From NCBI RefSeq assembly GCF_020073745.1, contig NZ_JAIRAU010000047.1, positions 1 to 29,989 on the forward strand: a stretch of 29,989 nucleotides of DNA, written 5' to 3'. This document shows, in pieces, positions 1 through 29,226 of this stretch. Under the pieces are notes generated by a model, which did no database searches, was not told where the DNA came from, and saw only the letters and a program-made list of their open reading frames with translations. Origin of the DNA: Nannocystis pusilla (GTDB lineage Bacteria > Myxococcota_A > Polyangia > Nannocystales > Nannocystaceae). How positions within the stretch are numbered: the stretch's first letter is position 1; every line of letters begins with the position of its first letter. The position numbers were made by a program, and so were the translations under genes.

Positions 1-909
1 GTCTGGCTGTACGATCGCGGCACGATCCTCTACCGCGGCCACGCCCGCCGCGGCGACCTCGGGACCCTGCGCTCGGCCTATCTCGAGACCACGATCTACC
101 GCAACGGCCTGTCCGGCCAGGGCCCCGGCACCGCCATCGGCGTGCCCGGCAAGACCGGCGACGCCAAGTACTATTATACGCAGAACATGGCGCTCCATTA
201 CCTCATGACCGGCGACGACCGCTTCCGCGAGAGCGCCGAGGACGTCGCCGAGGCCTACGACGCGCTGTGGAACCCCGGCTACGACGGCGGCGACGGCTTC
301 TGGACCGAGCGCCACGCCGGCTTCGGCCTGCTCGCCTACGTCTGGGCGATGAACGTCTCCGACGATCAGGCCGACCAGTTCCGCGGCCTCGCCGAGGCGG
401 CCGTCGCCGCCTACATCGACGTGCAGGACAGCTATCCGCCCGGCTACGACGATCCCGACGCCCGCTGCTTCGCCCACACCGACGCCGCCGCCGACGAGGA
501 CTTCGGGTTCTGGGGCTGCTCGCCGTGGCTCAGCGCCATCCTGGCCGACGGCCTCGATCAGTTCGCCACCGACTCCGACGGCCCCGTCGCCGACGCCGCC
601 CGCGCCTCGCTCGTCAAGCTCGGCCGCGTCGTCGCCCGCGACGGCCTCGACGCCGACGGCAAGCCGTTCTACTGGATGGGCGTCGGCGACGGCAACGGCG
701 CCGTCGACGACTACGACGAGCACTGGGGCGAGAGCGCCTACGTCGTCGCCCTCGCCTACTACCACGACGGCTCGAGCGACCCCGAGCTCAAGCAGACCGC
801 CGAGGACCTGGCCCAGGGCCTGGCCGACTTCGGCGAGGTCCCGCACATGCGCAGCTTCAACTGGCAGTGCCGCTCCGCCGTCGCCACCTCGTGGTTCCTG
901 TCGCAATGA
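1..909 (+). CDS. Hypothetical protein, 5'-partial; the frame is open from base 1 and stops with TGA at 907-909. Possibly a secreted glycan-acting enzyme.
   Basis: Frame 1 is open from the window edge. GC3 is strongly biased and the composition is not low-complexity (YYYTQNMALHY, FWTERHAGFG, YYHDG). I do not recognise the family. Confidence 0.6.
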   Translation, partial: VWLYDRGTILYRGHARRGDLGTLRSAYLETTIYRNGLSGQGPGTAIGVPGKTGDAKYYYTQNMALHYLMTGDDRFRESAEDVAEAYDALWNPGYDGGDGFWTERHAGFGLLAYVWAMNVSDDQADQFRGLAEAAVAAYIDVQDSYPPGYDDPDARCFAHTDAAADEDFGFWGCSPWLSAILADGLDQFATDSDGPVADAARASLVKLGRVVARDGLDADGKPFYWMGVGDGNGAVDDYDEHWGESAYVVALAYYHDGSSDPELKQTAEDLAQGLADFGEVPHMRSFNWQCRSAVATSWFLSQ

Positions 910-910
910 C

Positions 911-985
911 CGGACATGTCCGAAACGACAGTGCCCGATCGGGCATGATCTTATGGACCTGTCCGACCGGGCATTGTCCGATCAG
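911..985. repeat. CATG-palindrome repeat cluster: CGGACATGTCCG (911-922), GCCCGATCGGGCATG (933-947), GGACCTGTCCG (955-965), GGGCATTGTCCG (969-980).
   Basis: A perfect 12-bp palindrome plus degenerate copies lie between convergent gene ends (909 and 982). The same word family recurs throughout the window. Confidence 0.7.
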
Positions 986-1334
986 CCGAGGTACACCCCG
1001 CCGTTCGGGGCCGCCCGCGCCAGGCGGACCGCCTCGAGGATGTTGAGCAGGCGGAAGCGCAGCTCGTCGAGGCTGATCGCCGGCCAGCGCCCGGTGTTGG
1101 CCAGCAGCAGCCGGACCTCGCGCTCGAGCACGTCGAGCTGCGGGCCCTCGGCGAAGATGTCCTGCGCCGTCAGCGTCGGCAGCAGCGTCAACCCGAGCGC
1201 GCGTGCCACCTCCGAGCCGTAGACCGTCACGCGCCAGCGCTCGGGCCCGGCGAGGTCGTTGCGCGGTGGTTCGGCGGGCAGCTCCTGCGTCCCGCCGTCG
1301 GGCGCGCGCACGTAGGCGTGGGTGACGAGGGACA
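982..1334 (-). CDS. Hypothetical protein, about 117 aa.
   Basis: The ATG at 1334 is preceded by GGAGG. Downstream of this Met the ORF has normal composition (LDELRFRLLNILEAV); upstream it reads as Arg-rich junk. The start lies 80 bp from the divergent gene at 1415. Confidence 0.5.
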
Positions 1335-1414
1335 TCGAGCCTCCGGCGCGTAGTCTCGCGCATCTCGTGGCCGCGCGCATCCCCGCGCGGCGCGCCCGCG
1401 GTACCATCGCCGGC

Positions 1415-1795
1415 ATGGACGTCCTCGATCTCGTCGGCCCTGCCTGGCAGCTCATCCCCCTGCGGATCCCCGGCGGCTGGGGCGTGCGCCACAACGGCCT
1501 CGACGCCCGCCGCCTCGCCGACGGCCGCCTCGACGCCAACGACAGCGAGGACCTGCTGTGGCTCGTCAAGCTGCCGCCGGTCGGCGGCGAGTACCGCCCG
1601 GGCCCGGACAGCCCCTGGCGCGAGGTCCACCTCGACGCCGGCTTCTACCGCACCGGCTACCGCGTCGTGCTCCTCGATCCGGACTGGGACCACATCCTCG
1701 CGTCGTTCAGCACCGAGAGCCTCGCCGAGCTGATCGCCTGCGTCGAGAAGTGGCTGATGAACGCGCCGACCGGCGACCTCTCGCCGCCCGCATGA
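1415..1795 (+). CDS. Hypothetical protein, about 126 aa; possibly an immunity-protein-like fold.
   Basis: The ATG at 1415 falls inside the longer ORF 1322..1795. Codon bias is good from the Met onward (MDVLDLVGPAWQLIPLRIPGGWGV..SEDLLWLV). The function is not recognised. Confidence 0.5.
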   Translation: MDVLDLVGPAWQLIPLRIPGGWGVRHNGLDARRLADGRLDANDSEDLLWLVKLPPVGGEYRPGPDSPWREVHLDAGFYRTGYRVVLLDPDWDHILASFSTESLAELIACVEKWLMNAPTGDLSPPA

Positions 1796-1923
1796 ACTCG
1801 AGATCGTGTGCTCACCGATGCACGGACCGCGCTCGCGGAGGTCGTCGCCGCCGCTGCGCTCCACCGGGCGGCGCCACCACGCGCCGTGATCAGGTACCCT
1901 CGGCGCCTTCGGAGGAGGCTGCG

Positions 1924-3342: not shown

Positions 3343-3402
3343 GCGTGTCCGGCTTGAGCGCGTCCGGCTTGAGCGTGTCCGGCTTGAGCGTGTTCGGGGG
3401 CG
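3343..3402. repeat. 15-bp tandem repeat, 4 copies (GAGCGYGTCCGGCTT; the last copy is degenerate).
   Basis: It is directly visible immediately after the stop codon at 3342. Confidence 0.85.
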
Positions 3403-3479: not shown

Positions 3480-3530
3480 TCACGTGCTCGGCGCTGTCTC
3501 TTCGGACAGGATGGTCTTTCGGACATACCC
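3480..3530. repeat. Hairpin-type members of the repeat family: CTGTCTCTTCGGACAG (3496-3511) and GGTCTTTCGGACATACC (3514-3530).
   Basis: CTGTC/GACAG arms flank a TCTTCG loop, which is UUCG-type. The same unit recurs at 5187-5202, 21372-21397 and 29073-29158. Confidence 0.6.
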
Positions 3531-3674: not shown

Positions 3675-3745
3675 TCGGTCATGCCCTCAAGGACATGTCC
3701 TCATCAACATGCTTTTTTCGGCATGTTCGTTCGAGCATGTCCTGC
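3675..3745. repeat. Cluster of five RRRCATGYYY-type decamers: GGTCATGCCC 3677-3686, GGACATGTCC 3691-3700, CAACATGCTT 3705-3714, CGGCATGTTCG 3719-3729, GAGCATGTCC 3733-3742.
   Basis: It is directly visible. ACATGC-TTTTTTCG-GCATGT (3707-3726) is an additional inverted repeat with a T-run. Confidence 0.7.
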
Positions 3746-3761
3746 TCGCGGCGACGGACGG

Positions 3762-5168: not shown

Positions 5169-5183
5169 GCGTCCGCGATTCCT

Positions 5184-5210
5184 CGTACATGGCCGAAGAG
5201 ACAGCTCTCA
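5184..5210. repeat. Repeat family copy CGTACATGGCCGAAGAGACAGCTCTCA.
   Basis: It nearly matches 28912-28937 (GGACATGTCCTGCGAGACAGCTCTTA) and the reverse complement of 3496-3507. It sits in the convergent junction between the SDR and the sterol reductase. Confidence 0.6.
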
Positions 5211-5234: not shown

Positions 5235-6386
5235 TCAATACACCCCGGGGATGATCCGCCAGCGCACCCGCCGCTCGTACTGCTGCCACAGCGCCCCGTA
5301 CTTGGCGCGGCAGCGGCGGTCGTCGTCGATCTGCCGCGGCACCAGCAGCACCACGTAGTACAGCGGATACAGCCACGGCCCCGGCTCGCCCGGGTAGCCG
5401 AGCGACAGCGCCAGCGCGGTCGCCATCGTCATCTCGCCCAGATAGTTGATGTGCCGCGACAGCCCCCAGAAGCCGCTCACCAGGATCTTCTTCTCGCCGT
5501 CGGTCAGCACCTCGGGCGCGATCGACCCGAACGCCAATTTCTCCGGCTGCGTCTTGAACCAGAACTTCTGCATGTTGGCCCCGCGCGCCAGCATCCACCC
5601 GGCGAAGAACAGCGCCGCGCACAGCCCCAGCAGCGGCGCCGGCGTGTGCGGATTGGCCAGCTCCGCCGTCGTCCACAGGCCAACCGCGTAGAAGAACGGG
5701 TAGAACGTCAGGCAGCCCCAGCCGAGCTTGAAGCCGACGCGCTCGGCCACGAAGTCGTAGGTGTAGAGGTGCACCTCCTCGAAGTTGAGGTACTCCCACA
5801 GGAAGAACGAGAACAGCGCCACGTGCAGCAGCACGCCCGGCGACGGGTCGCCAGGGTACGCGAGCAGGTGATGGGCCGCGAACGACAGCAGGTTCAGCTG
5901 CAGCATCACCGCCCCGATCAGGTACAGAAACATCTTGGCGTCGACGTGGCCGTCGAGCCACTGCGGATTGGCCAGGCGTCCGAGGTACAGGTCCGCCAGA
6001 AAGCCGCGCCGCGGCGCCGCCGGCAGCACGATCGCCAGCGTGAACAGCAGCCCCAGCCCGCACGCCGTCGCCAGCGTCGCCTCGCGGTGCACGTACAGCC
6101 AGTCCCACGGCGCCAGCCCGGTCGCCCCGGCGACGAAGTACAGCGCCACCGTCAGCGCCATCACTCGCAGCCCGTTGAGCCGGTAGCGCAGCGGCGCTCC
6201 GCTGGCCTCGTCGCGCACGTAGCCGGTCACGCGGCGGCCCGGCACGATCAGGTGGAGCACGAACACCAGCCCGTAGAGGGCGATCAGCGCGAATGCGGGC
6301 GACACGGCCCAGGCTACGAGACCGCGGCCGCGCCTGTAAAGCCTCGGCGCGTGCGCTCCGGCTCGACCCGTGCCAAGCTCGGGCAT
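5235..6386 (-). CDS. Sterol reductase of the DHCR7/ERG4/ERG24 family (7-dehydrocholesterol reductase-like).
   Basis: The C-terminal signature LVSGFWGLSRHINYLGEM..YYVVLLVPRQIDDDRRCRAKYGALWQQY aligns by eye to the human DHCR7 C-terminus (LLVSGFWGVARHFNYVGDL..RDEHRCASKYGRDWERY). It has multiple TM helices. The ATG at 6386 (MPELGTGRAG) is preceded by GAGGA; an alternative GTG lies at 6305. Confidence 0.8.
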   Translation of the reverse strand: MPELGTGRAGAHAPRLYRRGRGLVAWAVSPAFALIALYGLVFVLHLIVPGRRVTGYVRDEASGAPLRYRLNGLRVMALTVALYFVAGATGLAPWDWLYVHREATLATACGLGLLFTLAIVLPAAPRRGFLADLYLGRLANPQWLDGHVDAKMFLYLIGAVMLQLNLLSFAAHHLLAYPGDPSPGVLLHVALFSFFLWEYLNFEEVHLYTYDFVAERVGFKLGWGCLTFYPFFYAVGLWTTAELANPHTPAPLLGLCAALFFAGWMLARGANMQKFWFKTQPEKLAFGSIAPEVLTDGEKKILVSGFWGLSRHINYLGEMTMATALALSLGYPGEPGPWLYPLYYVVLLVPRQIDDDRRCRAKYGALWQQYERRVRWRIIPGVY

Positions 6387-6891
6387 GCCCCGTCCTCGCG
6401 CCGCCCTCGTGCTGTCCGCCTGCCTGTTCGTTTGCGCATGCTCCAAGGGCCAGGTAGAGCCGACCGACCCCGGCGGCGGCGGCAAGGTGTGCACCGAGAT
6501 CGGCTGCATCGGCGGCCTGCGCGTCGAGCTCCAGTCGGCCAGCGGCTGGGCGCCGGGCGAGTACACGTTCAGCTTCGCGCTCGACGGCGCGCCCGTCACC
6601 TGCACCGGCTCGCTGCCGCTGCGCGCCTGCGACGCGGGCCCCTCGCTCGCCTGCGACGTCCCGGACCGCGTGCAGATCGGCGAATCCGGCTGCGCCTTGC
6701 CGCCCGAGCAACATGGCTTCGCGGACATCCTGGTGCCGAGCAGTCCCGCCAGGCTCGATCTGGCGATCCGCCGCGACGGCCAGCAGCTGTGGGCCGGCGA
6801 GCTCGCCCCGACCTACGTCGAATCGCAGCCCAACGGGCCCGGGTGCGAGCCGATCTGCCGCGGCGCGACCGCCCAGGTGGCGCTCCCGTGA
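6385..6891 (+). CDS. Small Cys-rich secreted lipoprotein, 168 aa.
   Basis: MPRPRAALVLSACLFVCAC is a signal peptide with a lipobox. GC3 is excellent through to the stop at 6889-6891. The ATG at 6385-6387 overlaps the CAT (6384-6386) that gives the ATG of the divergent sterol reductase, inside GGGCATGCCC. Confidence 0.7.
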   Translation: MPRPRAALVLSACLFVCACSKGQVEPTDPGGGGKVCTEIGCIGGLRVELQSASGWAPGEYTFSFALDGAPVTCTGSLPLRACDAGPSLACDVPDRVQIGESGCALPPEQHGFADILVPSSPARLDLAIRRDGQQLWAGELAPTYVESQPNGPGCEPICRGATAQVALP

Positions 6892-6908
6892 CCTGTCCCC
6901 CGGGACAG
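6892..6908. terminator. Inverted repeat CTGTCCCCCGGGACAG between convergent genes; a possible bidirectional terminator-like hairpin with no U-run.
   Basis: A perfect 6-7 bp stem follows the stop at 6891, 60 bp before the convergent stop at 6969. It carries the TGTCC/GGACA half-sites of the repeat family. Confidence 0.35.
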
Positions 6909-6968
6909 CTTACGGCCACCGGCGGATGACCCCGCCTGTGACCGGCGAGGCCGCGGAGCGCTCGTCGA

Positions 6969-9602: not shown

Positions 9603-10877
9603 GTGGACCCGCGTCCCCTGCTCGAAGATCTCGCGCGATCGTACCGCGCTGCCGGCCCCGAGGTCGACGGCGAGCTGTACGACAACCGCCTGATCCGCGG
9701 CGACAACCTGCCCGCCCTGCTCGCGCTCGAGCCCGAGTTCGCCGGCAAGATCCGCTGCGTCTACATCGATCCGCCGTACAACACCGGCCGCGCCTTCGCC
9801 CACTACGACGACGGGGTCGAGCACGCCCGCTGGCTCGCCGACATCCGCGCGCGCCTCGAGGTGTTGCGCCGCCTGCTCGCCGCCGACGGCACCCTGTTCG
9901 TGCACATCGACGACAACGAGCTCGGCTACCTCATCGTCCTGCTCGACGAGGTGTTCGGGCGCGCCAACCGGGCCTCGGTCGTCACCTTCAAGCAAGGCGC
10001 GCCGACCGGCCACAAGGCGATCAACCCCGGCTGCGTCACCACCTCCAACTTCGTCCTCGTCTACGCGAAGGACCGCGCGCGCTGGAGCCCGCCGCGGCTG
10101 TTCACCGCCCGCGAGCGCGACCCACGCTACGCGCAGTTCATCGTCAATCGCGGCGAGCCGCACGAGGCGTGGCGGATCGTCACCCTGCTGCGGGCCTTCG
10201 CCGACGCCGAGGGCCTGGGCGAGCGGGCGGCCCGGCAGCTCGCGCGCGACGAGCCCGCGCGGCTCGACCGCTTCGTCCTCGACCACGCCGACGCCGTCGT
10301 CCGCCTCGCGCGGCCCGACTACAACGCCGTCAGCGCCGCCGCGCGGGCCATGATCGACCGCTCGAAGGCCGCGCCCGGGCAGGTCCTCCGGCTGGAGCGC
10401 GACGACCACGACGACTTCTACTTCGTCCGCGGCGAGCGGATCCTCTTCTACGCCGCCAAGCTCAAGCACATCGACGGCGAGCGGGTCGCCGGCGAGCCGC
10501 TCACCACCATCTGGGACGACCTGCTGTCCAACAACCTGCACAACGAGGGCGGCGTCGCCTTCCCCAAGGGCAAGAAGCCCGAGGCCCTGCTGAAGCGCGT
10601 GCTCGAGCTGTCGACCCGCCCCGGCGACTGGGTCCTCGACGTCTACGCCGGCTCGGGCACCACCGGCGCCGTCGCCCACAAGCTGCGGCGGCGGTGGATC
10701 CTCGTCGAGCGCGGCGACCACTGCGACGGCCTCGTCGCCGCCCGCCTGCGCGCCGTCGTCGACGGGCGCGACCCCAGCGGCGTCACCGCGGCGGTCGGCT
10801 GGCGCGGCGGCGGCGGCTTCCGCTACTTCCGCGTCGCGGATGTCGTTTCAGACATGTCCTCGGAGCCATGTCCATGA
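9603..10877 (+). CDS. Site-specific DNA methyltransferase, beta-class (N6-adenine or N4-cytosine; Type III Mod-like), apparently orphan.
   Basis: Motif IV VYIDPPYN precedes motif I VLDVYAGSGTTGAVAHKLRRRWILVE, with a KPEALLKRVLELS helix. The GTG start at 9603 is the first start after the stop at 9591. No restriction or helicase gene is adjacent. Confidence 0.85.
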   Translation: MDPRPLLEDLARSYRAAGPEVDGELYDNRLIRGDNLPALLALEPEFAGKIRCVYIDPPYNTGRAFAHYDDGVEHARWLADIRARLEVLRRLLAADGTLFVHIDDNELGYLIVLLDEVFGRANRASVVTFKQGAPTGHKAINPGCVTTSNFVLVYAKDRARWSPPRLFTARERDPRYAQFIVNRGEPHEAWRIVTLLRAFADAEGLGERAARQLARDEPARLDRFVLDHADAVVRLARPDYNAVSAAARAMIDRSKAAPGQVLRLERDDHDDFYFVRGERILFYAAKLKHIDGERVAGEPLTTIWDDLLSNNLHNEGGVAFPKGKKPEALLKRVLELSTRPGDWVLDVYAGSGTTGAVAHKLRRRWILVERGDHCDGLVAARLRAVVDGRDPSGVTAAVGWRGGGGFRYFRVADVVSDMSSEPCP

Positions 10878-10912
10878 GCACAGGTTCTCGGGGGCATGTC
10901 CCTTCAGCCACT
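10850..10912. repeat. Repeat cluster AGACATGTCC (10850-10859), GCCATGTCC (10866-10874), GGGGCATGTCCC (10891-10902).
   Basis: It spans the convergent junction and provides the last ~10 codons and stop of the methyltransferase, and the stop of the minus-strand gene. Confidence 0.7.
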
Positions 10913-12270: not shown

Positions 12271-13446
<1,176 letters not shown>

Positions 13447-14500: not shown

Positions 14501-14520
14501 GCCCAGCGCTCGCGCCTGCA

Positions 14521-14546
14521 CGGACATGTCCCCGGGGACATGTCCG
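14521..14546. repeat. Perfect 26-bp palindrome CGGACATGTCCCCGGGGACATGTCCG, containing two GGACATGTCC decamers.
   Basis: It is directly visible and lies between the convergent stops at 14500 and 14565. Confidence 0.9.
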
Positions 14547-14564
14547 AATCAACACGCGACGCCA

Positions 14565-15740: not shown

Positions 15741-16196
15741 ATGACAGGTGCCATGCCGCACCCCCTCACCGAACTCGCTGGCTCATGGACCGGCCCCGCG
15801 CGCACCTGGCTCGGCCCCGAACCCGAGGTCAGCACCTGGCGCGTCGAGATCGAGTCGCTGCTCGACGGCCGCTACGCGCGCCTCCGCTACGAGGGCGTGT
15901 GCGCCGGCAAGCCGCACCGCGGCGAGATGACCCTCGGGGTCGACGACCACGAGCACACCATGTACTGGATCGACACCTTCCACACCGGCGCCTCCGCCCT
16001 GTGGTCGACCGGGCCCGCGGGCCCCGCCATCTCGGTCCTCGGCAGCTACCGCGCCGGCCCCGAGCGCTGGGGCTGGCGCACCGCCCTCCGCCGCGACGGC
16101 GACCTCCTCGTGATCGAGGCCACCAACATCCACCCCAACGGCCACGAGGACCGCGCGATCGAGGTCCGCCTCACCCGCGCCGCCGCGGCTGCCTGA
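15741..16196 (+). CDS. Hypothetical protein, 151 aa (DUF1579-like by eye).
   Basis: GC3 is good and an ATG lies at 15741 (alternative at 15753). It is divergent from the peptidase. Confidence 0.55.
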   Translation: MTGAMPHPLTELAGSWTGPARTWLGPEPEVSTWRVEIESLLDGRYARLRYEGVCAGKPHRGEMTLGVDDHEHTMYWIDTFHTGASALWSTGPAGPAISVLGSYRAGPERWGWRTALRRDGDLLVIEATNIHPNGHEDRAIEVRLTRAAAAA

Positions 16197-16198
16197 TC

Positions 16199-16252
16199 GA
16201 CCATGCCCCGGAGGGCATGCCCGAACGAACATGCCCTTTCAAGCATGCCTCA
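16199..16252. repeat. Four decamers: GACCATGCCCC, GGGCATGCCC (16213-16222), GAACATGCCC (16227-16236), AAGCATGCCT (16241-16250).
   Basis: It lies between the convergent stops at 16196 and 16250. Confidence 0.7.
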
Positions 16253-17380
16253 AGGGCAAGCCACGACCTGCACCTCGTAGCTGAACGGCTGGGGCACCCC
16301 GTCCACCTGCACCGTGTAGGTCTTGCCGGCCTCGCTGACCCAGCCCTGCGGCGTCATGGCGATCGCGCTGCTCGAGCCGAACCCGCCCTGCAGGGTCGTC
16401 AGCTTGACCGGCTTCTCGACCCCGTTCTCGCGGATCGTCACCTGGGCCGCGCCGACGTCGATCTCGTCGCTCTGGATCGTCCACCCCGTCTCGTCGACGT
16501 CGGCCCACGGCACCTCGGGCACGTGGATGGCCGCCAGCGGCACGATCCCCGGGGGCGGCCACGCCGTCCACTCGGCGCCCGCGCCGGCCTGGCCGCCGAT
16601 CACCCACATGCACGAGTTGACCGACGTCGAGCCGAGCCCGATCGGCCCCAGCGACCGCGAGAGGATCCACCGCCGGTGGCCGAACGTCGTCGCGTTGCCC
16701 GGGTCGACCATGTAGAGGTCGACCGCGACCACCCCGGGCGTCGCCGAGATGTTGCTGTTCATCGCCGCCTGCGCCCCCTCGGCCGTGTAGCAGGCCCACA
16801 TCACGTCCGGGTCGTGCGACAGCATCCCCTCGGCGTGCATCATCAGCGCGCACTGCTGCGCCTTCGCGTTCAGCCCGGCGTCGTGGCCGACCGGCGGCAG
16901 CCCGGCCAGCCAGCGGTACAGGTTGACCAGCCGCAGCGCGTTGTCGCGGCCGGGCGCCCCGGTGTCGCCGGCCGTGCAGCCCGCCACCGCCCCGCTCCAT
17001 GTCCCCTCGGACATGTCCGATCGGTCCGCCGCCCAGCGCTCGCACACCGCCGCGACCGGGTCGACCGGCTCGCCCGTGGTCTCGCCCGCCGTGCCGGTGC
17101 TGTCCGGCGGCCCGGTGTCGATCGGCCCCGTCGACGTCGACGGCGCGTCCGGCCCCGTGGCGGTCGGCTCCGGCAAGCTCGTGGCGGTCGGCGCCGGCGC
17201 GTCGCCCGTGCTCGTCGTCGCCGCCGTCGTCGTCGGCCCGCTCGCCGCCGTCGCCTCGCTCGCCGCCGTCGCCGTCGAATCTGTACTTTCGGCCATCCCC
17301 GATCCGCGGTAGCAGCTCACCACGAACACGGACGCGAGCGCGACGGCCGCGCGACGATCGACACGACGAGACGGCGACAT
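16250..17380 (-). CDS. CAP/SCP (cysteine-rich secretory protein / PR-1-like) domain lipoprotein with a Thr/Ala/Pro-rich linker and a C-terminal beta domain.
   Basis: The ATG at 17380 gives MSPSRRVDRRAAVALASVFVVSC (lipobox). The CAP core is NALRLVNLYRWLAGLPPV..AQQCALMMHAEGMLSHD. Confidence 0.8.
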   Translation of the reverse strand: MSPSRRVDRRAAVALASVFVVSCYRGSGMAESTDSTATAASEATAASGPTTTAATTSTGDAPAPTATSLPEPTATGPDAPSTSTGPIDTGPPDSTGTAGETTGEPVDPVAAVCERWAADRSDMSEGTWSGAVAGCTAGDTGAPGRDNALRLVNLYRWLAGLPPVGHDAGLNAKAQQCALMMHAEGMLSHDPDVMWACYTAEGAQAAMNSNISATPGVVAVDLYMVDPGNATTFGHRRWILSRSLGPIGLGSTSVNSCMWVIGGQAGAGAEWTAWPPPGIVPLAAIHVPEVPWADVDETGWTIQSDEIDVGAAQVTIRENGVEKPVKLTTLQGGFGSSSAIAMTPQGWVSEAGKTYTVQVDGVPQPFSYEVQVVACP

Positions 17381-17412: not shown

Positions 17413-19740
17413 TCAACCCGGCGCCGGCGCGGTCTTGCGGCTCTCGGCGACGATCCGCACCAGGTCGGCCTCGTCCTCGCACAGCGCGACGATGAGGTCG
17501 CCCGGCGCCACCGCCTCGTCGGGCCGCGGGTTGACGATGAGCCGTCGGCGCAGCTCCGCGTGCGACGACCCGCCCGCCGGCACCTTCCCGCCCGGATCCG
17601 CCGCGCGGTACAGCCCCAGGGGCACCGCGCCCCCGCGCCCTTGCACCTCGAGCAGCGCGCGCCGGACCTTGCGCCACGGCTGTCCGATCAGCCAGGTGGG
17701 CGCCGGCGCCGTGTACACCTCGGCGTTGTCGTCGGCGAACGCGACCACCCGGTTGAACAGCTCCGCGAACGCGCGGTCGCGGCAGGCCATCACCAGCCAG
17801 CGGTGCGCCAGCGCCTGGCAGTCGACCGGCACCAGCCAGCCCGCGAACGGCGAGAACACCTCCTCGCGCTCCGCGTCGGACGTCTCCACCAGCGTCACCG
17901 GCAGCGCCGGCGCGGTGCGGGCGATCTCGACCGACGTCGCCGCCACCCCCAGCGTGCGCGCGCGCTGACCTCCGCCCACCGGATCGCGCGCGCACGCCTG
18001 ATGGACCGCGCGGGCGATCCGCAGCGGATCGTAGCCCTCGCCGCCCGCGTCGCCGTCGCCGAGCACGATCACCCGCGCCGCCCGCGGCAGCCGCAGCCCG
18101 GCCAGGTCCTCCGGCACCTCGGGGTTCGAGTGGTGGATCGTCAGCGCCTTGACCCGCGCCAACTGCAGCCGCACGCGCCGCGGCAGCGCGTCCGAGACCA
18201 CCACGTGCAGCGCCCGCGTGCGCGTCGGCCCCGGGCTGCGCAGCAGGCGGATCAGCGGCAGCATGTCCTCGCGGAAGTTGAGCACCACCAGGTGGTGCTT
18301 CAGCCGCCGCCACAGCCGCGTCTGCTCCTGCGCGAAGATGTTGGTCAGCGTCGCCGTGAACCACGCGAGCAGGCCGAGCCCGAGGATCGTCGCCGCCGCC
18401 CCGACCAGCCGCGCCGTCGGCGTCTTCAGCGTGTCGGTGGTGAAGTTGCCGGTGGCGAACGTGTTCATCTCCCAGAACGAGTCGTTCAGCGTCCGCAACC
18501 TGGCGTTCGAGTCATGTTCTAGAGACCAGACGATGAACGTCGACAGCGTCACCACGCAGGCGAACGCCGCGAACGGCACCAGCGGGTTCGACAGCTGGCT
18601 CTCGAGCCCGGCCCCCGGGACCCGGCGGCGGCGCAGCGCCCGGCGGATCAGGTACAGCGCCAGCCCGAGCGCCGCCGCCGACGCCCCCGCCTGCAGCCAC
18701 GCCGTCCGGCGCTCGCTGGTCTCGTGGATCTCCGCCACCGGGTGGAGCGGGATCGGCTCGCGCTCGGCGAAGCCGCGCCACTCGACGTTCACCCCGAGGC
18801 CCGCGTACTGCTCGTCGCGCTCGAGCTTGCGCAGCCCGTGGATCATCGCCTCCACCGCCAGCCGGCGGTCGGCCAGGAACGCCTCGTCCGCCAGACGCTC
18901 GCGCGGCGTCGCCATCAGCACCACCGAGCTCACGCACACCGTCGGCAGGCTGAACTCGAGGCCCGGATAGGTCCCGGTCTCGATCGGGCAGATCCGGTAG
19001 TACGGGTAGCCGTCGATCAGCCGGTTCAGCACCGCCTCGGGCAGCGGGTTCAGCGTCGCCAGCCCCGACGCCAGCACGTCGCGGATCTCCGCGTGTCCGA
19101 GCTCGGTGGTGCGCAGCATCGTCAGCACCTCGCGGCGGCTCATCGCCACCAGCGCCTCCTGGGCGCTGCCCATGAACAGCGGCAGCGACTCCGCCGTGTG
19201 CCCCGCCGCGCCGAGGATCACCTTCGCCGTCTCGTAGCTGCCCGAGCCGTCCTTGCCCATGAACAGCGCCTCGCGGCCGATGTCGGTGAAGTCGTCGAGC
19301 CGGACCGGCCGGCGCACCAGCACGTGGACCGCCGCGTCGGTGACCGCCGCCACCACCTGCAGTTCGGCCTTGTCGGCCTCCTCCGGCGACAGCTTGCACA
19401 TCCACCCGCCCTTCGGCGTCGCGCCGCCGCCCGCGCCGGCGTCGGCCTGCCCGGCCTTGTACGCCTCCGCGGCCACGTCGTACTGCACCAGCGCCACGTC
19501 GAGCTCGCCCGACAGCAGCTTGTGCACGTTCTCGCACGACCCCTTGGTCGTCTCCGGAACCACCGTCACGCGGCCCTCGCCGCGGACCGCCTCGGCCAGC
19601 GCCCGGACCATCGCGTCGAACCCGCCGCCCTTGCTGCCCGAGCCGAAGCGGACCTCGATCGCCTCGCCGGCCCGCGCGCTGCCTGCCTGAAAGAGCATGC
19701 CCACGAGGACAGGCCCGAACAGCCATGTCCGCTTGAACAT
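17413..19740 (-). CDS. Fusion protein: TAXI-family (TRAP-associated) solute-binding domain, then transmembrane pore module, then tandem RCK-like domains; a putative ligand-gated ion channel.
   Basis: Signal MFKRTWLFGPVLVGMLFQAGSARA. TAXI-like RFGSGSKGGGFDAMVRALAEAV. TM helices flank a pore-helix-like FWEMNTFATGNFTTDT (compare K-channel FWxxxTxTTVGYGD). Rossmann-like HLVVLNF.. and HVVVSD.. domains follow. The first ATG is at 19740; a TTG at 19770 is an alternative. Confidence 0.8.
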   Translation of the reverse strand: MFKRTWLFGPVLVGMLFQAGSARAGEAIEVRFGSGSKGGGFDAMVRALAEAVRGEGRVTVVPETTKGSCENVHKLLSGELDVALVQYDVAAEAYKAGQADAGAGGGATPKGGWMCKLSPEEADKAELQVVAAVTDAAVHVLVRRPVRLDDFTDIGREALFMGKDGSGSYETAKVILGAAGHTAESLPLFMGSAQEALVAMSRREVLTMLRTTELGHAEIRDVLASGLATLNPLPEAVLNRLIDGYPYYRICPIETGTYPGLEFSLPTVCVSSVVLMATPRERLADEAFLADRRLAVEAMIHGLRKLERDEQYAGLGVNVEWRGFAEREPIPLHPVAEIHETSERRTAWLQAGASAAALGLALYLIRRALRRRRVPGAGLESQLSNPLVPFAAFACVVTLSTFIVWSLEHDSNARLRTLNDSFWEMNTFATGNFTTDTLKTPTARLVGAAATILGLGLLAWFTATLTNIFAQEQTRLWRRLKHHLVVLNFREDMLPLIRLLRSPGPTRTRALHVVVSDALPRRVRLQLARVKALTIHHSNPEVPEDLAGLRLPRAARVIVLGDGDAGGEGYDPLRIARAVHQACARDPVGGGQRARTLGVAATSVEIARTAPALPVTLVETSDAEREEVFSPFAGWLVPVDCQALAHRWLVMACRDRAFAELFNRVVAFADDNAEVYTAPAPTWLIGQPWRKVRRALLEVQGRGGAVPLGLYRAADPGGKVPAGGSSHAELRRRLIVNPRPDEAVAPGDLIVALCEDEADLVRIVAESRKTAPAPG

Positions 19741-19765
19741 GCCCTTGGGGGCAGGCCCGCTCCGC
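19686..19765. repeat. Decamer cluster GAGCATGCCC (19693-19702), AGCCATGTCC (19721-19730), GAACATGCCC (19736-19745) plus GGGGGCAGGCCC; it overlaps the start and signal-peptide codons of the channel gene.
   Basis: It is directly visible. The codons in this segment include several rare ones (CCT, ACA, TTT, GCA). Confidence 0.6.
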
Positions 19766-19921: not shown

Positions 19922-20635
19922 TCACTCCGCCTCTCCCGTCAGCACCAGCAGCGCGCTGGCGTCGCGCAGGGGCCGGCCCGGGGCCGGGCTCAGCAGCATC
20001 GCCGGCTCTGCCCCCTCACCCGGCGCGAACAGCCCGATCAGCGTCACCGGGCGCCCGCAGCGGTCGACCTCGATCTCGAGGCAGGCCTCGCGGAACGTCC
20101 GCGCGCGCAGCTCCGGCGGCACCGGCCAGGTCTCGGCGCGCAGGCGGCCGGACAGCAGCGCCAGCATGAAGCGGAACGCCCCGAGGTCGACGCACGCGTG
20201 GGCCAGCAGGGCCGCGCGCAGGAAGCCCGGGTAGAAGATCGTCGCCACCCCGAGCCCCTCGAACTCGTGGGTCGCCTCCGGGTCCTCGACCGCCACCACC
20301 ACGTGCGGCGGCCCGCCCTTGCACGCCCGCTGGATCGCCGTGCACACCAGGCGCGAGAACGCGTCGGTCTCGCCGTGCCCGCGCAGCGGCAGCACCACGA
20401 TCGCGTCGGCGGCCGGCAGGTCGGCCGTGTCGGCGAAGAAGCGCGCCAGCGCCTCGACCCCGCCGCTCGCCGATCCCTGCCAGTACCTTTCGACATGTCC
20501 TTCGGGCAAGCTCGCCAGCGCCGGCGCCACCGCCTCCGCCGGCGCCGGCCCGATCAGCGTCAGCGCCGGGCGCGGCTCCGCGGCCGCGATCGCGCGCACC
20601 AGCCCCAGCGCCTCCGGCGTCCAGTGAATCACCAC
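19922..20635 (-). CDS. Stand-alone RCK/TrkA-like regulatory domain protein, paralogous to the C-terminal part of the adjacent channel.
   Basis: VVIHWTPEALGLVRAIAAA..HVVVAVEDPEATHEF resembles the RCK regions of the 17413-19740 gene. The GTG start at 20635 is inferred; the ORF is open to 20947, but the upstream part is Ala/Gly-rich low complexity. The stop at 19922 is clear. Confidence 0.5.
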   Translation of the reverse strand: MVIHWTPEALGLVRAIAAAEPRPALTLIGPAPAEAVAPALASLPEGHVERYWQGSASGGVEALARFFADTADLPAADAIVVLPLRGHGETDAFSRLVCTAIQRACKGGPPHVVVAVEDPEATHEFEGLGVATIFYPGFLRAALLAHACVDLGAFRFMLALLSGRLRAETWPVPPELRARTFREACLEIEVDRCGRPVTLIGLFAPGEGAEPAMLLSPAPGRPLRDASALLVLTGEAE

Positions 20636-21075
20636 CCAGCGCGGCCGAGACGGCCCTGCAGGCGCCGTGGCGAGCTCCTCCGCCGCAGCCGCCGTGTCCC
20701 CGCGATCCGTCACGCCGGCGCGAGCGTCCGCCCGCGCGCCGCCGCCTGTCAAGCCGCCCGCGCCTTTCGCCGTCGACACCATGTCCGCCCGGACAGCCGC
20801 CCAGCGTGCGCGGTGCATCGGCGCGACTTCCGTCGGCCGCCGCTCGCCGCCTGAAGGTGAATTCACCGCACCGCCGAGTCTCCGTCTCTTCGCGGGCGAC
20901 CGCGCTGCCGCCCCGCGGACGGCAGCGGCCGCGCCCCGCTCGGTCACGCCCTGCCTCGCGTGCCTGCTCGGCCGCGTGCTAGCGTCGCCGCCTGCGTTCC
21001 ACCGAGCTCCTCGCGCTGGCGCTCATCGCGCTGGTCTCTTTCGGCCTCAGCTACATCGGCGCCACCGTCGGCCTC

Positions 21076-21783
21076 GTGCTCGGCCAGCTGCGGGTGGCCC
21101 TCCTCGTCTACGTCCTCGGCAGCCCGGTGATCGGCGCCGCCACCAGCCTCGCCATCTCGACCGCGGGCACCCTCACCGGCACCCTGCGGCACGCCCGCGA
21201 GGGCCGCGTCAGCCCGTGGCTGCTCGCCACCGTCGGCGCGCCCTCGGCCCTGGCCGCCTTCCTCACCGCGCGCTGGGCCGGCAGCATCGACGCCCGCGCG
21301 CTCAAGGCCGCGATCGCCGTCGTCCTGCTGCTGACCGGCCTGAGCATGTCACGTCGCCGGCCCGAGCCCACCGGTCCTTCGGAACATGTCTCTTCACGCA
21401 GCTTCGCCGTCGCCGCCGAGGTCGTCGTCGGCACCGCTCTCGGCGCGATCTCGGGCCTCGTCGGCCTCCTCCTCGGCAGCCTGCGCCTGCCGGCGATGAT
21501 CCGCTACGCCCGCGTCCCGCCGCCCGTGGCCGTCGGCACCAACATGGCGATCGGCGCCGTCACCGGGCTGTCGGCGGGCGTCGCCACCTTCCTCGAGGGA
21601 CAGGTCCACTTCGGCGCCTTCGCGGTCGTCACCCCGCTCACCCTGCTCGGCGCCAACCTCGGCGCCCGCCGCACCGGCCGCCTCGACGAGGCCAGCCTGC
21701 GCCGCTGGATCGCCTGGATCCTCCTGCTCTCCGCCGCCCTCATGCTCGGCGAGCTGGGCGTGGCCCTCTACCGCGCCGGCTGA
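21076..21783 (+). CDS. TauE/SafE-family (DUF81) membrane exporter.
   Basis: It is a multi-TM protein with the conserved glycine-rich first helix IGATVGLVLG and the paired motif in the second half (VAVGTNMAIGAVTGL). The first canonical start is the GTG at 21076, but the conserved helix is encoded upstream in the same frame (open from 20983), so the true N-terminus is uncertain. Confidence 0.65.
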   Translation: MLGQLRVALLVYVLGSPVIGAATSLAISTAGTLTGTLRHAREGRVSPWLLATVGAPSALAAFLTARWAGSIDARALKAAIAVVLLLTGLSMSRRRPEPTGPSEHVSSRSFAVAAEVVVGTALGAISGLVGLLLGSLRLPAMIRYARVPPPVAVGTNMAIGAVTGLSAGVATFLEGQVHFGAFAVVTPLTLLGANLGARRTGRLDEASLRRWIAWILLLSAALMLGELGVALYRAG

Positions 21784-24136: not shown

Positions 24137-25934
24137 TCGTGACCGAGCTCGAGCGCTTCCTCGCCTTCGCCGGGCGGGCCGTCCCTGCCGCGTTCGGCGC
24201 CGGCCTCGAACCCGCCGCGCTCCGCGCCCACTGGCGCCGCGCCGGCCAAGCGATCGGCGCCCGGCTCGTCCTCGCCTGCGCGCGCGAGCGGCTCGTCGAG
24301 AGTGACCTGCAGGACATGTCCCTTCAGACATGCTCATTGAGCCTCCCGCTGCGGCGCCTGCGGGCCTTCGAGTTGCACGCCGCCGACCTCGACGCCAGCG
24401 ACCTCCCCGAGCTCGCCGAGCTGCTCCCGCGCCTGCTCCCCGCCCTCGCCCCGCCGGTGCGCGCCCGCCTCGCGCGCGAGCTCGGCGACAGCCGCTGGAA
24501 CCTCGCCCTCGCCCGGGTCGCCGCCGACCTGCGCGAACGGACATGCTCCATGGGACACCTCTGGCGCGGCCCGCTCGACCCCGAGAACCTGGTCGTCGAC
24601 GGCCACCCCTGGCACCCCATGAGCAAGACCCGGCTCGGCCTGCGCGCCTGGGAGGACCTGCGCCACGGCCCCGATCAGCTGGCCCAGGCGCCCGTCCACG
24701 CCGTCGACCTCGCCCGCGGCGACGCCCTGCTCGCCGCCGAGGCGGTCTTTGCCGACATCTCGCGCGAGCTGTTCCCCGCCCCCGCGCCCGGGTACGTCCG
24801 CCTGCCCGTCCACGCGCTCCAGCTGCGCCGGCTGCCGCGCCTGCTCGGCCCGCTGTGGGGCGACCGCGTGCGGCCCGTCGCCGTCGCGCCGCGGTCGGCG
24901 CGGGCCCTGCTCAGCCTGCGCACCGTCGCCCTCGCCGTTCCCGCGCTGCACCTCAAGCTCGCCGTCGACATCCACACCACCAGCGCGCGGCGGCAGGTCT
25001 CGCCCGCCTCCGTCCACAACGGCCCGCCGATCGCCGCGCTGCTGCGCCGGATCCAGGCCGCCGATCCGCACACCCGCCGCGGCCTGCGGATCCAGCCCGA
25101 CCTCGCCGCCGCCGGCCTCGACCCGCGCCATGGGCCCGTCGCCGGCCAGCTCGGCGTGGTCGTCCGCCCCGACCTCGCCCCGCTCGCCCGCGAGGTCGCC
25201 CGCGACCCGGCCCCTCCTCTGGGACATGCTCCCAGCGACATGTCCCCGAGCACATTCCCCGTCGAACATGTCCCCGAGGTCATCGTCTGCGCCGCCCTCG
25301 GCGAGCGCCGGCCGGGCGGCGACCTGCTGCTGCGCGAGCTCGCGGCCGCCTACCCGGGCGACCTGCGCGTCCGCCTCGCCGCCTTCTTCGCCGACTACCT
25401 CGACCAGCTCGTCCCGCCGCTGCTGCGCCTCCTCACCGCCCACGGCGTCGCCCTCGAGGCCCACCTGCAGAACGCCCTGCTCGTGCACGCAGGCGGCCGC
25501 CCGCGGGGCTTCCTCGTCCGCGACCTCGGGGGCGTGCGGCTCCACCGCGGCCGCCTCGCCGCCGGCGGTCACGCGCCCGCGCTCGCGTCCGACTCGTTCG
25601 TGATCACGCACGAGCTCGCCGAGGCCCAGGGCAAGCTGATGCACACGCTGGTGCACGCACACCTCGCGGCGGTGATCGGCTGGGTCGACGACGCCGGCGG
25701 CCCCGACCCGGCGCAGCTGTGGCCGGAGGTGCGGCGGATCTTCCAGCACCACCTCGAGCGCTGGTCGACCGAGCCCGCGCTGGCGCGCGCGTGCGCCGAC
25801 GATCGCGCGTTCTTCGGCGCGGCCACCTGCCGCAGCAAGGCGCTGCTCGCCATGCGCATCGACGAGCGCGTCAGCGATTACGCCTATACCGAGGTCGCCA
25901 ACGCGCTCGCCGCCGGGTACTCTTCCCCCGCCGC

Positions 25935-25938
<4 letters not shown>
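24133..25938 (+). CDS. IucA/IucC-family (NRPS-independent siderophore synthetase-like) adenylating amide/ester ligase.
   Basis: [21 protein letters not shown] (compare PVHPWQ), [34 protein letters not shown] and RDLGGVRL match the family motifs as I remember them. GTGA overlaps the upstream stop. Three in-frame repeat-motif segments lie at 24312-24335, 24538-24557 and 25221-25277. Confidence 0.8.
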
Positions 25939-26866
<928 letters not shown>

Positions 26867-26882
<16 letters not shown>

Positions 26883-26903
26883 ACCCTGTCCCAGGAGACA
26901 TTG
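26867..26903. repeat. GGACATGTCC (26867-26876) plus ACCCTGTCCCAGGAGACATTG; the second part contains the AGGAGA ribosome-binding site for nadE.
   Basis: It is directly visible and spans the Prs-like stop and the 22-bp gap before nadE. Confidence 0.6.
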
Positions 26904-26904
26904 A

Positions 26905-28887: not shown

Positions 28888-28897
28888 GCCCGGCGCA

Positions 28898-28937
28898 GGA
28901 TGTGTCCGGATGGACATGTCCTGCGAGACAGCTCTTA
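28898..28937. repeat. GGATGTGTCCGG, GGACATGTCC (28912-28921), GAGACAGCTCTTA.
   Basis: It nearly matches 5184-5210 and lies immediately after the nadE stop. Confidence 0.65.
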
Positions 28938-29030
28938 CGCACCCCGGCCCGCTGGGTCCCCTGCGCTCGCGGCGACCGTCCGCGCCCGAACGCTCCGCCC
29001 CGCCGGGCCCGGTGCGTCCGGCGCCGTCTC

Positions 29031-29158
29031 ACATGTCTCTCGGGCCAGGCCACTCCCGGCGCCGGGCTCGACGGATGTCTCTTCGGACAGCCCCCCGTCG
29101 CCCACCCACGCCCGGCCGAGCCCGCCGCCCGCATCGACCTGTCCTTTCGGACATGCGC
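29031..29158. repeat. Three spaced hairpin-type units: CACATGTCTCTCGGGCCAGG (29031-29050), GGATGTCTCTTCGGACAGCC (29073-29092), CTGTCCTTTCGGACATGCGCC (29135-29158).
   Basis: The shared core is ATGTCTCTTCGGACAG, with UUCG-type loops, in the 5' leader of the downstream methyltransferase gene. Confidence 0.6.
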
Positions 29159-29226
29159 CATCCGACGGTCGAGCCCGCCGCAGCGCCCGCGCGGGCGCCC
29201 GTCCGGGCCCGCGCTATGCTGCCGTC

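Follow-up and report, generated by a model that had tools for sequence, protein, structure and literature searches.

The clusters of a short CATG-centred palindrome that recur along the chromosomal DNA of Nannocystis pusilla raise the question of what kind of element they represent and what role they might play at the ends of genes. The stretch analysed here, referred to as the window, is 29,989 nucleotides long. The decamer RRRCATGYYY was found 23 times in the window compared with 1.09 ± 0.98 times in dinucleotide shuffles of it (maximum 4), which confirms the enrichment claimed by the original prediction. The window contains about 21 members of a genus-specific, very short, hairpin-forming interspersed repeat family, whose abundance of about 0.3-1 copies per kb extrapolates to thousands of copies in a 12-Mb Nannocystis genome. 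When 185,579 species' genomes were searched, 100 of the 103 perfect pairs came from Nannocystaceae; the repeats are limited to Nannocystis and its near relatives among the Nannocystaceae, syntenic outgroups showing no more than chance numbers. The view that the copies form a dispersed repeat family, rather than a set of independent binding sites, is borne out, and the family is lineage-specific. A viral origin was rejected, as a lone isolated pair was detected among 2.9 million viral contigs. Rfam gave no matches at gathering thresholds over the whole window, and no publication covering the element was found in the literature on Nannocystis palindromic repeats, the decamer itself, myxobacterial REPs, or RAYT/REPIN together with the term Myxococc. 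The family is previously undescribed and represents a small new form of the REP-type repeats known from other bacteria.

The decamer is only part of the real element, which is a 14-bp-phased hairpin. The building block is the 7-nt half-site C-M-T-G-Y-C-C and its complement (GGRCA-K-G). Each half-site is inverted relative to the one before and the gaps are fixed at 0 and 4 nt, which results in a strict array period of 14 bp. The variable spacing of 3-15 bp originally described was therefore wrong. In 889 kb of Nannocystis DNA, the dyad TGYCC-N4-GGRCA occurred 301 times versus about 4 times at any other spacing, and in the window 13 times versus 0-1. The 14-bp periodicity is visible out to ±42, and the characteristic distances are the 4-nt arm gap plus multiples of 14, with no second distance seen. 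The register is exemplified by the units at 3677/3691/3705/3719/3733 and at 16199/16213/16227/16241; gaps of 28 and 42 bp between units arise because degenerate units stay in phase. Arrays hold 1-6 units, the unit being 14-28 bp in size, and often end in half-units of either type. The spacers carry no information and the loops are heterogeneous. Alignment beyond the decamer, which had been suggested as a check, revealed the phased half-sites and 1-4 extra stem pairs, after which the profile dies out. The "extended similarity" reported for the longer copies did not hold up, since GAGACAGCTCT is present in 0 of 110 loci and a 98 % relative carries GAGACATCTCT at the orthologous site; a longer composite element, deduced from this 24-mer similarity, was rejected because conservation fades outside the phased half-sites. 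The analogy with MITEs also failed: the elements lack target-site duplications and have no body bounded by terminal inverted repeats, and the unit is only of the size given above.

Structurally, the unit is a stem-loop with arms of the form (n)GGACATGTCC(n) and the 4-nt spacer as its loop. Because the arm is a palindrome in its own right, the hairpin stem is identical on both strands and neighbouring arms are simultaneously inverted and direct repeats. When the 103 perfect pairs were centred on the spacer, their flanks were Watson-Crick complementary in 61 % versus 30 % (z = 7.3), and a second flank figure was 50 % versus 31 % (z = 4.3); centred on CATG, complementarity was at background (26 % versus 27 %). 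The CATG decamer was discarded as the structural centre because the two spacers flanking a unit do not co-vary. The formal match of the decamer to a p53 half-site is coincidental, as had been assumed: the host is a myxobacterium and the real unit is a spacer-centred, 14-bp-phased hairpin, which does not make a p53 response element. Intergenic arrays fold into stems of 10-14 bp (-17 to -40 kcal/mol, z -3.3 to -4.8), and in-gene copies fold poorly. Stem pairing quality decreases from convergent (75 %) through co-directional (68 %) and divergent (63 %) to in-gene copies (60 %). Bases of the conserved stem co-vary only weakly (odds ratio 2.5, p = 0.04), indicating that sequence identity counts for more than pairing alone. 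On the sense strand of co-directional junctions, G.U pairs outnumber A.C pairs (114 versus 81, p = 0.02), with no such excess elsewhere; this may be a hint of selection at the RNA level, is marginal, and could stem from strand composition. Stable tetraloops (GNRA/UNCG) showed no bias on the sense strand (13 versus 7, p = 0.26). No U-tract was found 3' of the stems (1.26-1.27 T per 8 nt versus 1.12 in the background, without sense/antisense asymmetry), and a consensus terminator scan picked up only 3-4 arrays. Because of this lack of a U-tract, the elements were rejected as canonical intrinsic terminators.

Genes in the loci were called with a crude GC3-based caller. All seven convergent junctions are occupied, but the claim that most loci sit between convergent stop codons was overstated: about 7 of 21 do so, about 5 lie at co-directional or 5' junctions, and about 8, an overlooked third, lie within coding sequence (three in IucA/IucC, and CAP, a hypothetical gene, TauE and PCMT, plus the Prs 3' end). 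About five degenerate units fill the convergent gap at 910..985 between a + gene (stop 909) and a - gene (stop 982), with a core hairpin at about 927-977 and an RNA fold of -37.8 kcal/mol (z = -4.3). Two degenerate units at 5183..5210, in the convergent gap between the SDR (stop 5168) and ERG4/ERG24 (stop 5235) genes, fold weakly (z = -1.4). At 6886..6915, the spacer-centred hairpin CCTGTCC-CCCG-GGACAG, its stem extended to 12 bp (-16.8 kcal/mol, z = -4.75), overlaps the stop at 6891 in a convergent gap with an FG-GAP gene (stop 6969). The perfect pair GGACATGTCC-CCGG-GGACATGTCC with flanking half-sites (14513..14554; 11-bp stem, -25.7 kcal/mol, z = -4.4) occupies the convergent gap between a desaturase gene (stop 14500) and an M28 peptidase gene (stop 14565). 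DUF1579 (stop 16196) and CAP (stop 16250) converge on a gap that a four-unit array at 16190..16252 exactly fills, and the orthologous array in Na p29 (L112 9434-9494) has an equal number of units and unrelated spacers. An array of 4-5 units at 10841..10910 (z = -3.25) forms the 3' end of a Type III Mod-like methylase gene (stop 10877) and extends to the stop (10912) of a convergent - gene. This neighbouring methylase is an orphan, and CATG outside the elements is not avoided. Type III Mod-like methylases belong to a class that recognises asymmetric sites. A link between the repeats and the methylase is unsupported.

At other junctions, two small spacer-centred hairpins, TGTCT-CTTC-GGACA and TGGTC-TTTC-GGACA, lie 17 nt apart in intergenic DNA (3495..3525), and a five-unit array in strict 14-bp register (3675..3744; fold z = -3.6) lies in the intergenic region upstream of the SDR gene. 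A single unit, GGGCATGCCC, is located at 6379..6392 in the 5' region between ERG4/ERG24 and a + ORF. A five-unit array (19684..19760; -40.3 kcal/mol, z = -3.5) overlaps the gene ends at the junction of a hypothetical gene and NMT1_3, both on the - strand; its orthologues have 5 units (L112), 3 (L105), 1 (L106) and 1 (L107). The spacer-centred hairpin CATGTCC-GCCC-GGACAG (20777..20796) is in the divergent gap between this hypothetical gene and TauE. Three degenerate units span the Prs/NadE junction (26859..26904): the final 5 codons of Prs, its stop and the AGGAG that precedes the NadE ATG all come from them, and a remnant is retained in L106 and L107. A hairpin with a 14-bp stem lies 7 nt past the NadE stop and is followed by a degenerate unit (28894..28937; -25.4 kcal/mol, z = -3.9), with an orthologue in L104. 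The long NadE-PCMT spacer carries three degenerate spacer-centred hairpins (29027-29050, 29072-29090 and 29136-29158, together 29027..29158), in a region missing in L105.

Within genes, 1.5 units lie in the CAP-domain gene (16995..17020), with a counterpart copy in L105, L106, L107 and L112. The single unit CGACATGTCC in the - strand hypothetical gene (20489..20502) is present in L112 too, and a half-unit, unit and half-unit in TauE (21373..21400) have orthologous copies in L105 (4463) and L112 (4195). The IucA/IucC-FhuF gene contains two units with a poor fold (24303..24335, codons ...QDMSLQTCS...; z = -0.25), common to L105 and L112 and missing in L106 and L107; a unit with half-units (24530..24557), whose motif is retained in L105 despite different encoded residues; and an array of 4-5 units (25220..25282), situated in a lineage-specific insertion that separates the two domains. 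Two units in the PCMT gene (29345..29372) have an orthologue in L104 (3148). The locus list of the original prediction had missed this last site. Family sequence was nevertheless present at every locus that it did contain, with two corrections: the single copy placed at 6384-6393 is actually at 6381-6390, and the loci at 3495-3525, 6892-6908, 20777-20796 and 29027-29158 are not CATG decamers but the other dyad, TGYCC-N4-GGRCA.

Across the wider sample, density per kb was 2.79 in convergent gaps, 1.05 in co-directional gaps, 0.61 in divergent gaps and 0.15 in genes, and intergenic density was 4-19-fold above genic density. Perfect pairs were distributed even more unevenly (58 convergent, 29 co-directional, 6 in-gene and 2 divergent, n = 95). 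Unselected convergent junctions were occupied in 42 of 79 cases, compared with 0 of 8 in outgroups, and one quarter of the elements lie no more than 19 nt from a stop codon. The comparison with REPs, as first proposed, is apt in view of hairpin formation, the strong enrichment at 3' junctions and the near absence of perfect pairs from divergent gaps. These distributions also bear on the ideas that a transcription factor regulon uses the copies as operators, or that they are an artefact of base composition or chance. The inverted repeat, with half-sites 9 bp apart centre to centre, does resemble helix-turn-helix operators, but the elements are depleted in divergent promoter regions and concentrated past stop codons, they number in the thousands, and their enrichment over shuffles is at least 20-fold, which makes either version scarcely credible.

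The genic share amounts to about 36 % of non-seed arrays. Under codon shuffling, in-gene copies remained enriched, both for GGRCATGYCC (40 versus 4.6) and for the N4 hairpin (61 versus 1.6), and they are found in variable or inserted protein segments and retained across species. A role of RNA at gene 3' ends does not account for these enriched, retained but poorly folding copies. Two other explanations give them a place. The first is a DNA uptake signal like the Neisseria DUS or Pasteurellaceae USS, in which a motif read by a competence receptor would accumulate genome-wide and its inverted pairs would double as 3' hairpins. A genus-specific motif at the density given above, present within genes, preferentially in tolerant segments, conserved between species and found as inverted pairs downstream of genes, would be expected of such a signal; strict 14-bp phased arrays with a fixed 4-nt loop are not known from uptake sequences, and an intergenic density about 19-fold the genic one is a far stronger bias than that of USS, so that this explanation is very improbable.

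The second is an array of protein-binding sites on duplex or cruciform DNA. TGTCC-N4-GGACA and/or GGACATGTCC would be read by a dimeric protein specific to Nannocystis, or by gyrase or a nucleoid-associated protein as happens at BIMEs of E. coli. This protein would oligomerise every 14 bp (three units being 42 bp, or four helical turns), and the array would mark or relax zones between convergent transcription units. Half-site identity and fixed spacing are indeed far better conserved than pairing, strict phase is kept even in degenerate units, single in-gene units without a stable hairpin are still enriched and retained across species, and the preference for convergent junctions suits a topological role. 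However, arbitrary flanks co-vary as Watson-Crick pairs around the spacer centre, which points to strand extrusion rather than duplex read-out; moreover, the spacers are information-free, array ends are frequently half-units of either type, and no candidate protein was identified. A DNA-level array is thus considered a minor possibility, on the unlikely side.

Arrays occupy the same junctions, with spacers that bear no relation to each other, in species whose orthologous NadE and M28 peptidase share only 74-84 % identity, and at orthologous sites core identity is 78 % compared with 60 % for spacers. The original argument for a copied element fares poorly here: the elements look old and kept by vertical descent at orthologous sites across species, not recently copied, and a minority of arrays carry a fresh 14/28-bp tandem duplication. 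Of 70 adjacent spacer pairs, 5 were identical, versus 1 % by chance (e.g., L068, ×4), and the unit number at one orthologous junction was 5, 5, 3, 1 and 1. The array geometry would permit growth and shrinkage by slipped-strand mispairing of 14- or 28-bp units, which is partly shown. No target-site duplications were found, direct repeats abutting the elements being at chance level, and the orthologue index and seed gene gave no 98 %-identical genome across the window centre. A selfish REPIN-like replicator without host function, in which a single-copy RAYT/IS200-type (HUH) enzyme would copy the single-stranded hairpin and the junction bias would reflect insertion tolerance, has to be weighed against these data. 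The family has REP hallmarks, being short, palindromic, of high copy number, mainly extragenic and clustered (following the definitions in PMC3116915); in-gene copies are in variable or inserted protein segments, hairpin flanks co-vary, and REPINs are described as likewise long-lived and vertically inherited. On the other hand, the best tblastn hit of E. coli RayT had an E value of 0.49 (a weak test: the Nannocystis DNA searched, 0.95 Mb, represents about 1 % of the genomes), neither target-site duplications nor a conserved head sequence outside the stem were seen, and the unit is far below any REPIN in size. Tolerance alone does not account for the excess of elements in convergent over divergent gaps, which is 4.6-fold, and about 50-fold for perfect pairs, and conserved cores beside saturated spacers at orthologous sites indicate selection or conversion, not neutral decay after insertion. 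We regard the replicator as unlikely.

The reading that we favour, tentatively, is that the elements may well act as REP-like, strand-symmetric 3'-end hairpins, expanded by slippage and probably served by a sequence-specific partner. Situated mostly just past stop codons, above all convergent ones, they would be transcribed into the 3' UTRs of both transcripts. There, the GC-rich RNA hairpins of 10-14 bp could block 3'-5' exonucleases, or could pause RNA polymerase or help to terminate it in either direction. A putative sequence-specific partner is suggested by the conserved stem sequence, and might be a host factor that uses the repeats or a RAYT-like enzyme that propagates them. A stronger version, speculative and rather improbable, is that the repeats would be a strand-symmetric, sequence-coded end-of-gene signal peculiar to Nannocystis: a dedicated factor recognising the GGACATGTCC stem, as RNA or extruded DNA, would terminate or process transcripts bidirectionally, replace U-tract terminators in this high-GC genus and maintain the isolated in-gene copies.

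Myxobacterial genomes are huge and rich in natural-product genes, and their non-coding architecture is nearly unstudied. A repeat at half or more of the convergent junctions is of use in Nannocystis for annotating gene ends, predicting operons and typing strains, and bidirectional terminators or mRNA stabilisers, if that is what the repeats are, would be useful genetic parts in a genus with scarce tools. The self-palindromic arm gives a strand-identical, intrinsically expandable hairpin, a minimal design that could show how REP-like families originate and survive. A further question that it poses is what holds a 10-nt core constant over long divergence, even within genes.

Several known systems share features with the family. 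The TRIT motif of M. tuberculosis is a terminator-like palindrome with a conserved stem sequence. Like TRIT and intrinsic terminators, the Nannocystis elements are GC-rich stem-loops just past stops, often common to convergent genes, but they are without a U-tract on either side, form multi-unit phased arrays and have in-gene copies. A CRISPR array was rejected, as it has direct repeats of 24-48 bp and unique spacers of similar length, versus 10-bp repeats, 4-nt spacers and 1-6 units here. The words of the Neisseria DUS and Pasteurellaceae USS are not palindromic, have no fixed loop or phased arrays, and function with a competence receptor; the Nannocystis word is likewise genus-specific, short, over-represented in coding and non-coding DNA and arranged in inverted pairs that form hairpins downstream of genes, but it is palindromic, with a fixed loop and phased arrays. 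HIP1 (GCGATCGC) of cyanobacteria, the function of which is not established, is also a highly iterated palindrome kept at orthologous sites inside and outside genes; it is a solitary octamer, whereas the Nannocystis repeats have a hairpin partner, 14-bp arrays and a strong preference for 3' junctions. Rickettsia palindromic elements are 100-150 bp long and encode a recognisable peptide family. They too can be inserted in frame within genes and add peptide, comparable to the linker insertions in IucA/IucC, but the insertions in Nannocystis consist of 14-bp-phased arrays, and the majority of copies lie between genes.

REPs, like the Nannocystis repeats, accumulate at the 3' ends of genes and in the gaps of convergent gene pairs. 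The REP/BIME elements of enterobacteria and the REPIN-RAYT system of Pseudomonas resemble the present family in their clusters of alternating orientation, ssDNA or mRNA hairpins, lineage-specific sequence and long vertical persistence. In contrast to REPINs, in which tens of bp lie between two REPs, the Nannocystis arms are exactly 4 nt apart; the arm is self-palindromic and the hairpin strand-symmetric, the 14-bp phase is strict, and there is no conserved head tetranucleotide. As defined in PMC3116915, REPs are short (about 20-60 bp) imperfect palindromes, of high copy number (hundreds per genome) and mostly extragenic, and the Nannocystis family agrees with them as a short, palindromic, high-copy interspersed repeat denser between genes than within them. 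It differs in scale and placement: arms of 7-10 nt make up hairpins of 14-28 nt in total, compared with 20-60 nt for REPs, and over a third of its non-seed arrays are genic, compared with 14 of 1,067 REPs in P. fluorescens (PMC3116915).

The palindromic decamer RRRCATGYYY is over-represented in the window, as originally predicted, with 23 copies in 29,989 bp against 1.09 ± 0.98 (maximum 4) in dinucleotide-preserving shuffles; the sequence has a G+C content of 72 % and a GC skew that is negative throughout. Listing of every CATG with its context revealed that the cores within clusters keep a strict 14-bp register (e.g. 3677/3691/3705/3719/3733 and 16199/16213/16227/16241), and that gaps of 28 or 42 bp between cores hold a degenerate unit in phase. 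The spacer is a fixed 4 nt instead of the 3-15 bp of the original prediction. All of the loci listed in that prediction contain family sequence, including a copy assigned to 6384-6393 that truly lies 3 nt away at 6381-6390, and one locus, 29345-29372, had been overlooked.

The family is lineage-restricted. A scan of one genome per species (185,579 species) for GGACATGTCC-N4-GGACATGTCC, with about 0.5 matches per scan expected by chance, found 103 stretches, of which 100 belong to Nannocystis, Nannocystaceae or Myxococcales MAGs; the three outliers are single pairs with no further family sequence. The window encodes an NAD synthase that matches a Nannocystis pusilla protein at 100 % identity. 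Decamers and N4 hairpins (TGYCC-N4-GGRCA) together number 12.0 per 10 kb in the window and 7.9, 5.3, 4.1 and 3.6 in the syntenic loci L104, L105, L106 and L107, respectively. Three outgroups, which have the IucA/IucC-Prs-NadE synteny in common with the window and a NadE about 65 % identical, show 0.9 per 10 kb, the chance level, and their only hairpins are unique and GC-rich. Operators or chance are effectively excluded as explanations of the family. The sole viral-contig match, a perfect pair at 8908-8965 of L111 (IMG/VR UViG_3300005675_000065; 66 % G+C, without further copies), has a stem reaching 17 bp, TCCTCTCGGACATGTCC-TCTC-GGACATGTCCGAGAGGA, and could be fortuitous or derive from a phage that infects a related host. 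No description of the element was found in the literature searched, and no Rfam family covers it.

A perfect pair (two perfect decamers 4 nt apart) was the criterion by which the 103 pattern-derived loci were chosen, and these seeds were masked or separated where relevant; the DNA covered amounts to about 1 % of each genome. In the per-column information computed from 201 non-seed decamers, the 14-bp period extends to ±42, the 4-nt spacers are enriched in A and T, and neighbouring units are better conserved in their proximal than in their distal half, which indicates that arrays start and stop on either half-site type. Half-sites read C-M-TGYCC, with CCTG or CAGG frequently in place of "CATG". 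In a spacing scan of 889 kb, TGYCC-N4-GGRCA occurred 301 times, against about 4 at other spacings, and GGRCA-N0-TGYCC 335 times; masking of the seeds left 170 N4 arrangements, 119 of them standing alone, against 109 CATG-centred palindromes. The complementarity of arbitrary bases beside the elements was compared with a partner-shuffle control. Bases flanking the spacer-centred dyad were Watson-Crick complementary at 0.61 vs 0.30 (z = 7.3) and 0.50 vs 0.31 (z = 4.3), and pairing continued for as many as 9 additional base pairs, whereas the spacers on either side of the CATG unit were non-complementary (0.26 vs 0.27). Since flanks pair around the spacer and not around CATG, the CATG dyad was rejected as the structural centre, and the structural entity is a stem-loop of arm, 4-nt loop and arm. 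The arm is itself palindromic, and therefore the stem is the same on both strands and adjacent arms form inverted as well as direct repeats. Folding is strong for intergenic arrays (z from -3.3 to -4.8), for example with stems of 14 bp (28894-28925), 12 bp (6886-6915) and 11 bp (14521-14546), and weak for arrays inside genes (z = -0.25 and -0.7).

The hairpins are concentrated at gene 3' junctions. With a GC3-based caller (stops exact, starts crude; calls checked against Pfam matches in the window and heuristic beyond it), array density was 2.79 per kb in convergent gaps, 1.05 in co-directional gaps, 0.61 in divergent gaps and 0.15 in genes, and perfect pairs numbered 58, 29, 2 and 6 in these contexts. 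An element is present at 42 of 79 unselected convergent junctions, at about 20 % of other junction types and at 0/8 in the outgroups; in the window all seven convergent junctions carry one. One quarter of the elements lie within 19 nt of a stop codon, and gene ends can be overlapped: Prs takes its final five codons and its stop from the array at 26859-26904, which also contains the AGGAG that precedes the NadE ATG. L106 and L107 retain only a degenerate remnant of this array, and their Prs is five codons shorter.

At co-directional junctions, where a single strand is transcribed, sense-strand stem mismatches favour G.U over A.C (114 vs 81, p = 0.02). The two are symmetric elsewhere (convergent 130/136, divergent 34/34, genic 152/172), and the co-directional excess is a modest hint of RNA-level selection. 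Three results speak against a simple terminator: the U-tract is missing after stems (1.27 T in 8 nt vs 1.12), loops have no tetraloop bias, and the variable Y/R position of the stem covaries weakly (odds ratio 2.5, p = 0.04). Arm sequence identity therefore matters at least as much as pairing, which points to a putative sequence-specific partner of the arm. It also leaves room for a rival explanation, in which the arrays are protein-binding sites in duplex or cruciform DNA and have a topological role, as do the gyrase and IHF sites of E. coli BIMEs.

Even between species with only 74-84 % identity in orthologous proteins (NadE, M28 peptidase), arrays persist at orthologous junctions. The hypothetical gene/NMT1_3 junction carries five units in the window and in L112 (Na p29), and 3, 1 and 1 in the others; the CAP/DUF1579 convergent gap holds 4-5 units in the window and L112, with unrelated spacers. 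Between the window and L105, cores are 78 % and spacers 60 % identical (82 % over the whole, mostly coding, aligned region). Among 41 arrays of at least three units, spacers within an array are nearly random (Hamming distance 2.5 vs 2.9), and adjacent spacers are identical in 5/70 cases vs 1 % by chance, e.g. GCACATGCCC-cgaa x4 in locus L068. A minority of arrays are fresh tandem duplications. Arrays thus grow by duplication of 14/28 bp, after which spacers drift, whereas selection or conversion keeps the cores constant. One rival reading is a REPIN-like replicator that is purely selfish; no target-site duplications were found, and no RAYT homologue was detected in 0.95 Mb, an underpowered search at about 1 % of each genome. 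The NadE-PCMT spacer (28938-29226 region) is only 52 bp long in L105 but about 340 bp in L104 and the window; the additional DNA is packed with degenerate hairpins and looks like an accumulation of decayed elements.

Copies inside genes are also enriched, as confirmed by codon shuffling of 658 predicted genes: GGRCATGYCC occurs 40 times (shuffled mean 4.6) and TGYCC-N4-GGRCA 61 times (1.6), and the N5 control, TGYCC-N5-GGRCA, 4 times (4.7). A motif resembling an uptake signal is another rival explanation of the family. All six in-gene copies recur in L112. A frame plot places 24303-35, 24530-57 and 25220-82 within the IucA/IucC-FhuF gene, in protein segments that vary among orthologues; two of the three equal in length the motif-less sequence of L106 and L107, and the remaining one sits between the two domains as a lineage-specific insertion. 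L106 (8310-8420) and L107 (8285-8390) have their own insertion of about 38 residues at a different site, which is independent of that in the window and has its own motif copies (…SSDMSLSP… = GAC ATG TCC). The window and L105 share the motif even where their amino acids differ (RTCSMGH vs EACLQGQ). In-gene spacers consist of AT-rich codons, atypical of a gene with GC3 >0.9; the L105 arrays at 7423-7446 and 8310-8372 have markedly AT-rich spacers (TCTAAAAA, TTTAAA, CATAGA) in a gene whose third positions are otherwise >90 % G+C.

Several other features of the window were recorded. A Type III Mod-like DNA methyltransferase gene (9603-10877, + strand; PADLOC MTase_III E = 9e-106, Pfam N6_N4_Mtase), whose final codons and stop lie within a repeat array, looks like an orphan because no Res subunit adjoins; no connection to the CATG motif is demonstrable. 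A three-gene block between TauE and IucA/IucC (21842-24136, + strand), comprising an AAA_16/STAND-like NTPase and two ORFs without family match, occurs in the window, L105 and L112, is missing from L106 and L107, has no PADLOC or NCBIfam match, and may be a variable island. Tandem repeats unrelated to the hairpin family occur across the stop of a beta-propeller/NHL gene (3335-3397, 15-bp unit CGGCTTGAGCGTGTC x4.2), near the 5' end of an FG-GAP gene (9095-9159, 15-bp unit CGGTGCCCGTCGTGC x4.3, 98 % identity) and in an unannotated ORF (13111-13235, 6/18/48-bp CGTGCT repeats). An ERG4/ERG24-family sterol reductase gene (5235-6305, - strand; Pfam E = 2e-47) is of a type rare in bacteria; Nannocystis produces steroids.

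The evidence best supports a REP-like family of hairpins that are strand-symmetric and lie at the 3' junctions of genes. The hairpins would be transcribed into 3' UTRs and, probably with a partner protein, may in either direction block exonucleases, pause transcription or terminate it with the help of a factor. Such a mode of action would be like that of REP/BIME elements, although the element is smaller than the usual REP range and its architecture is not that of a REPIN; it is neither a MITE, nor a CRISPR array, nor a canonical terminator. The family is distinguished from these by a self-palindromic arm of 7-10 nt, a loop fixed at 4 nt, phasing at exactly 14 bp, a very high share of convergent junctions occupied and conserved in-gene copies.
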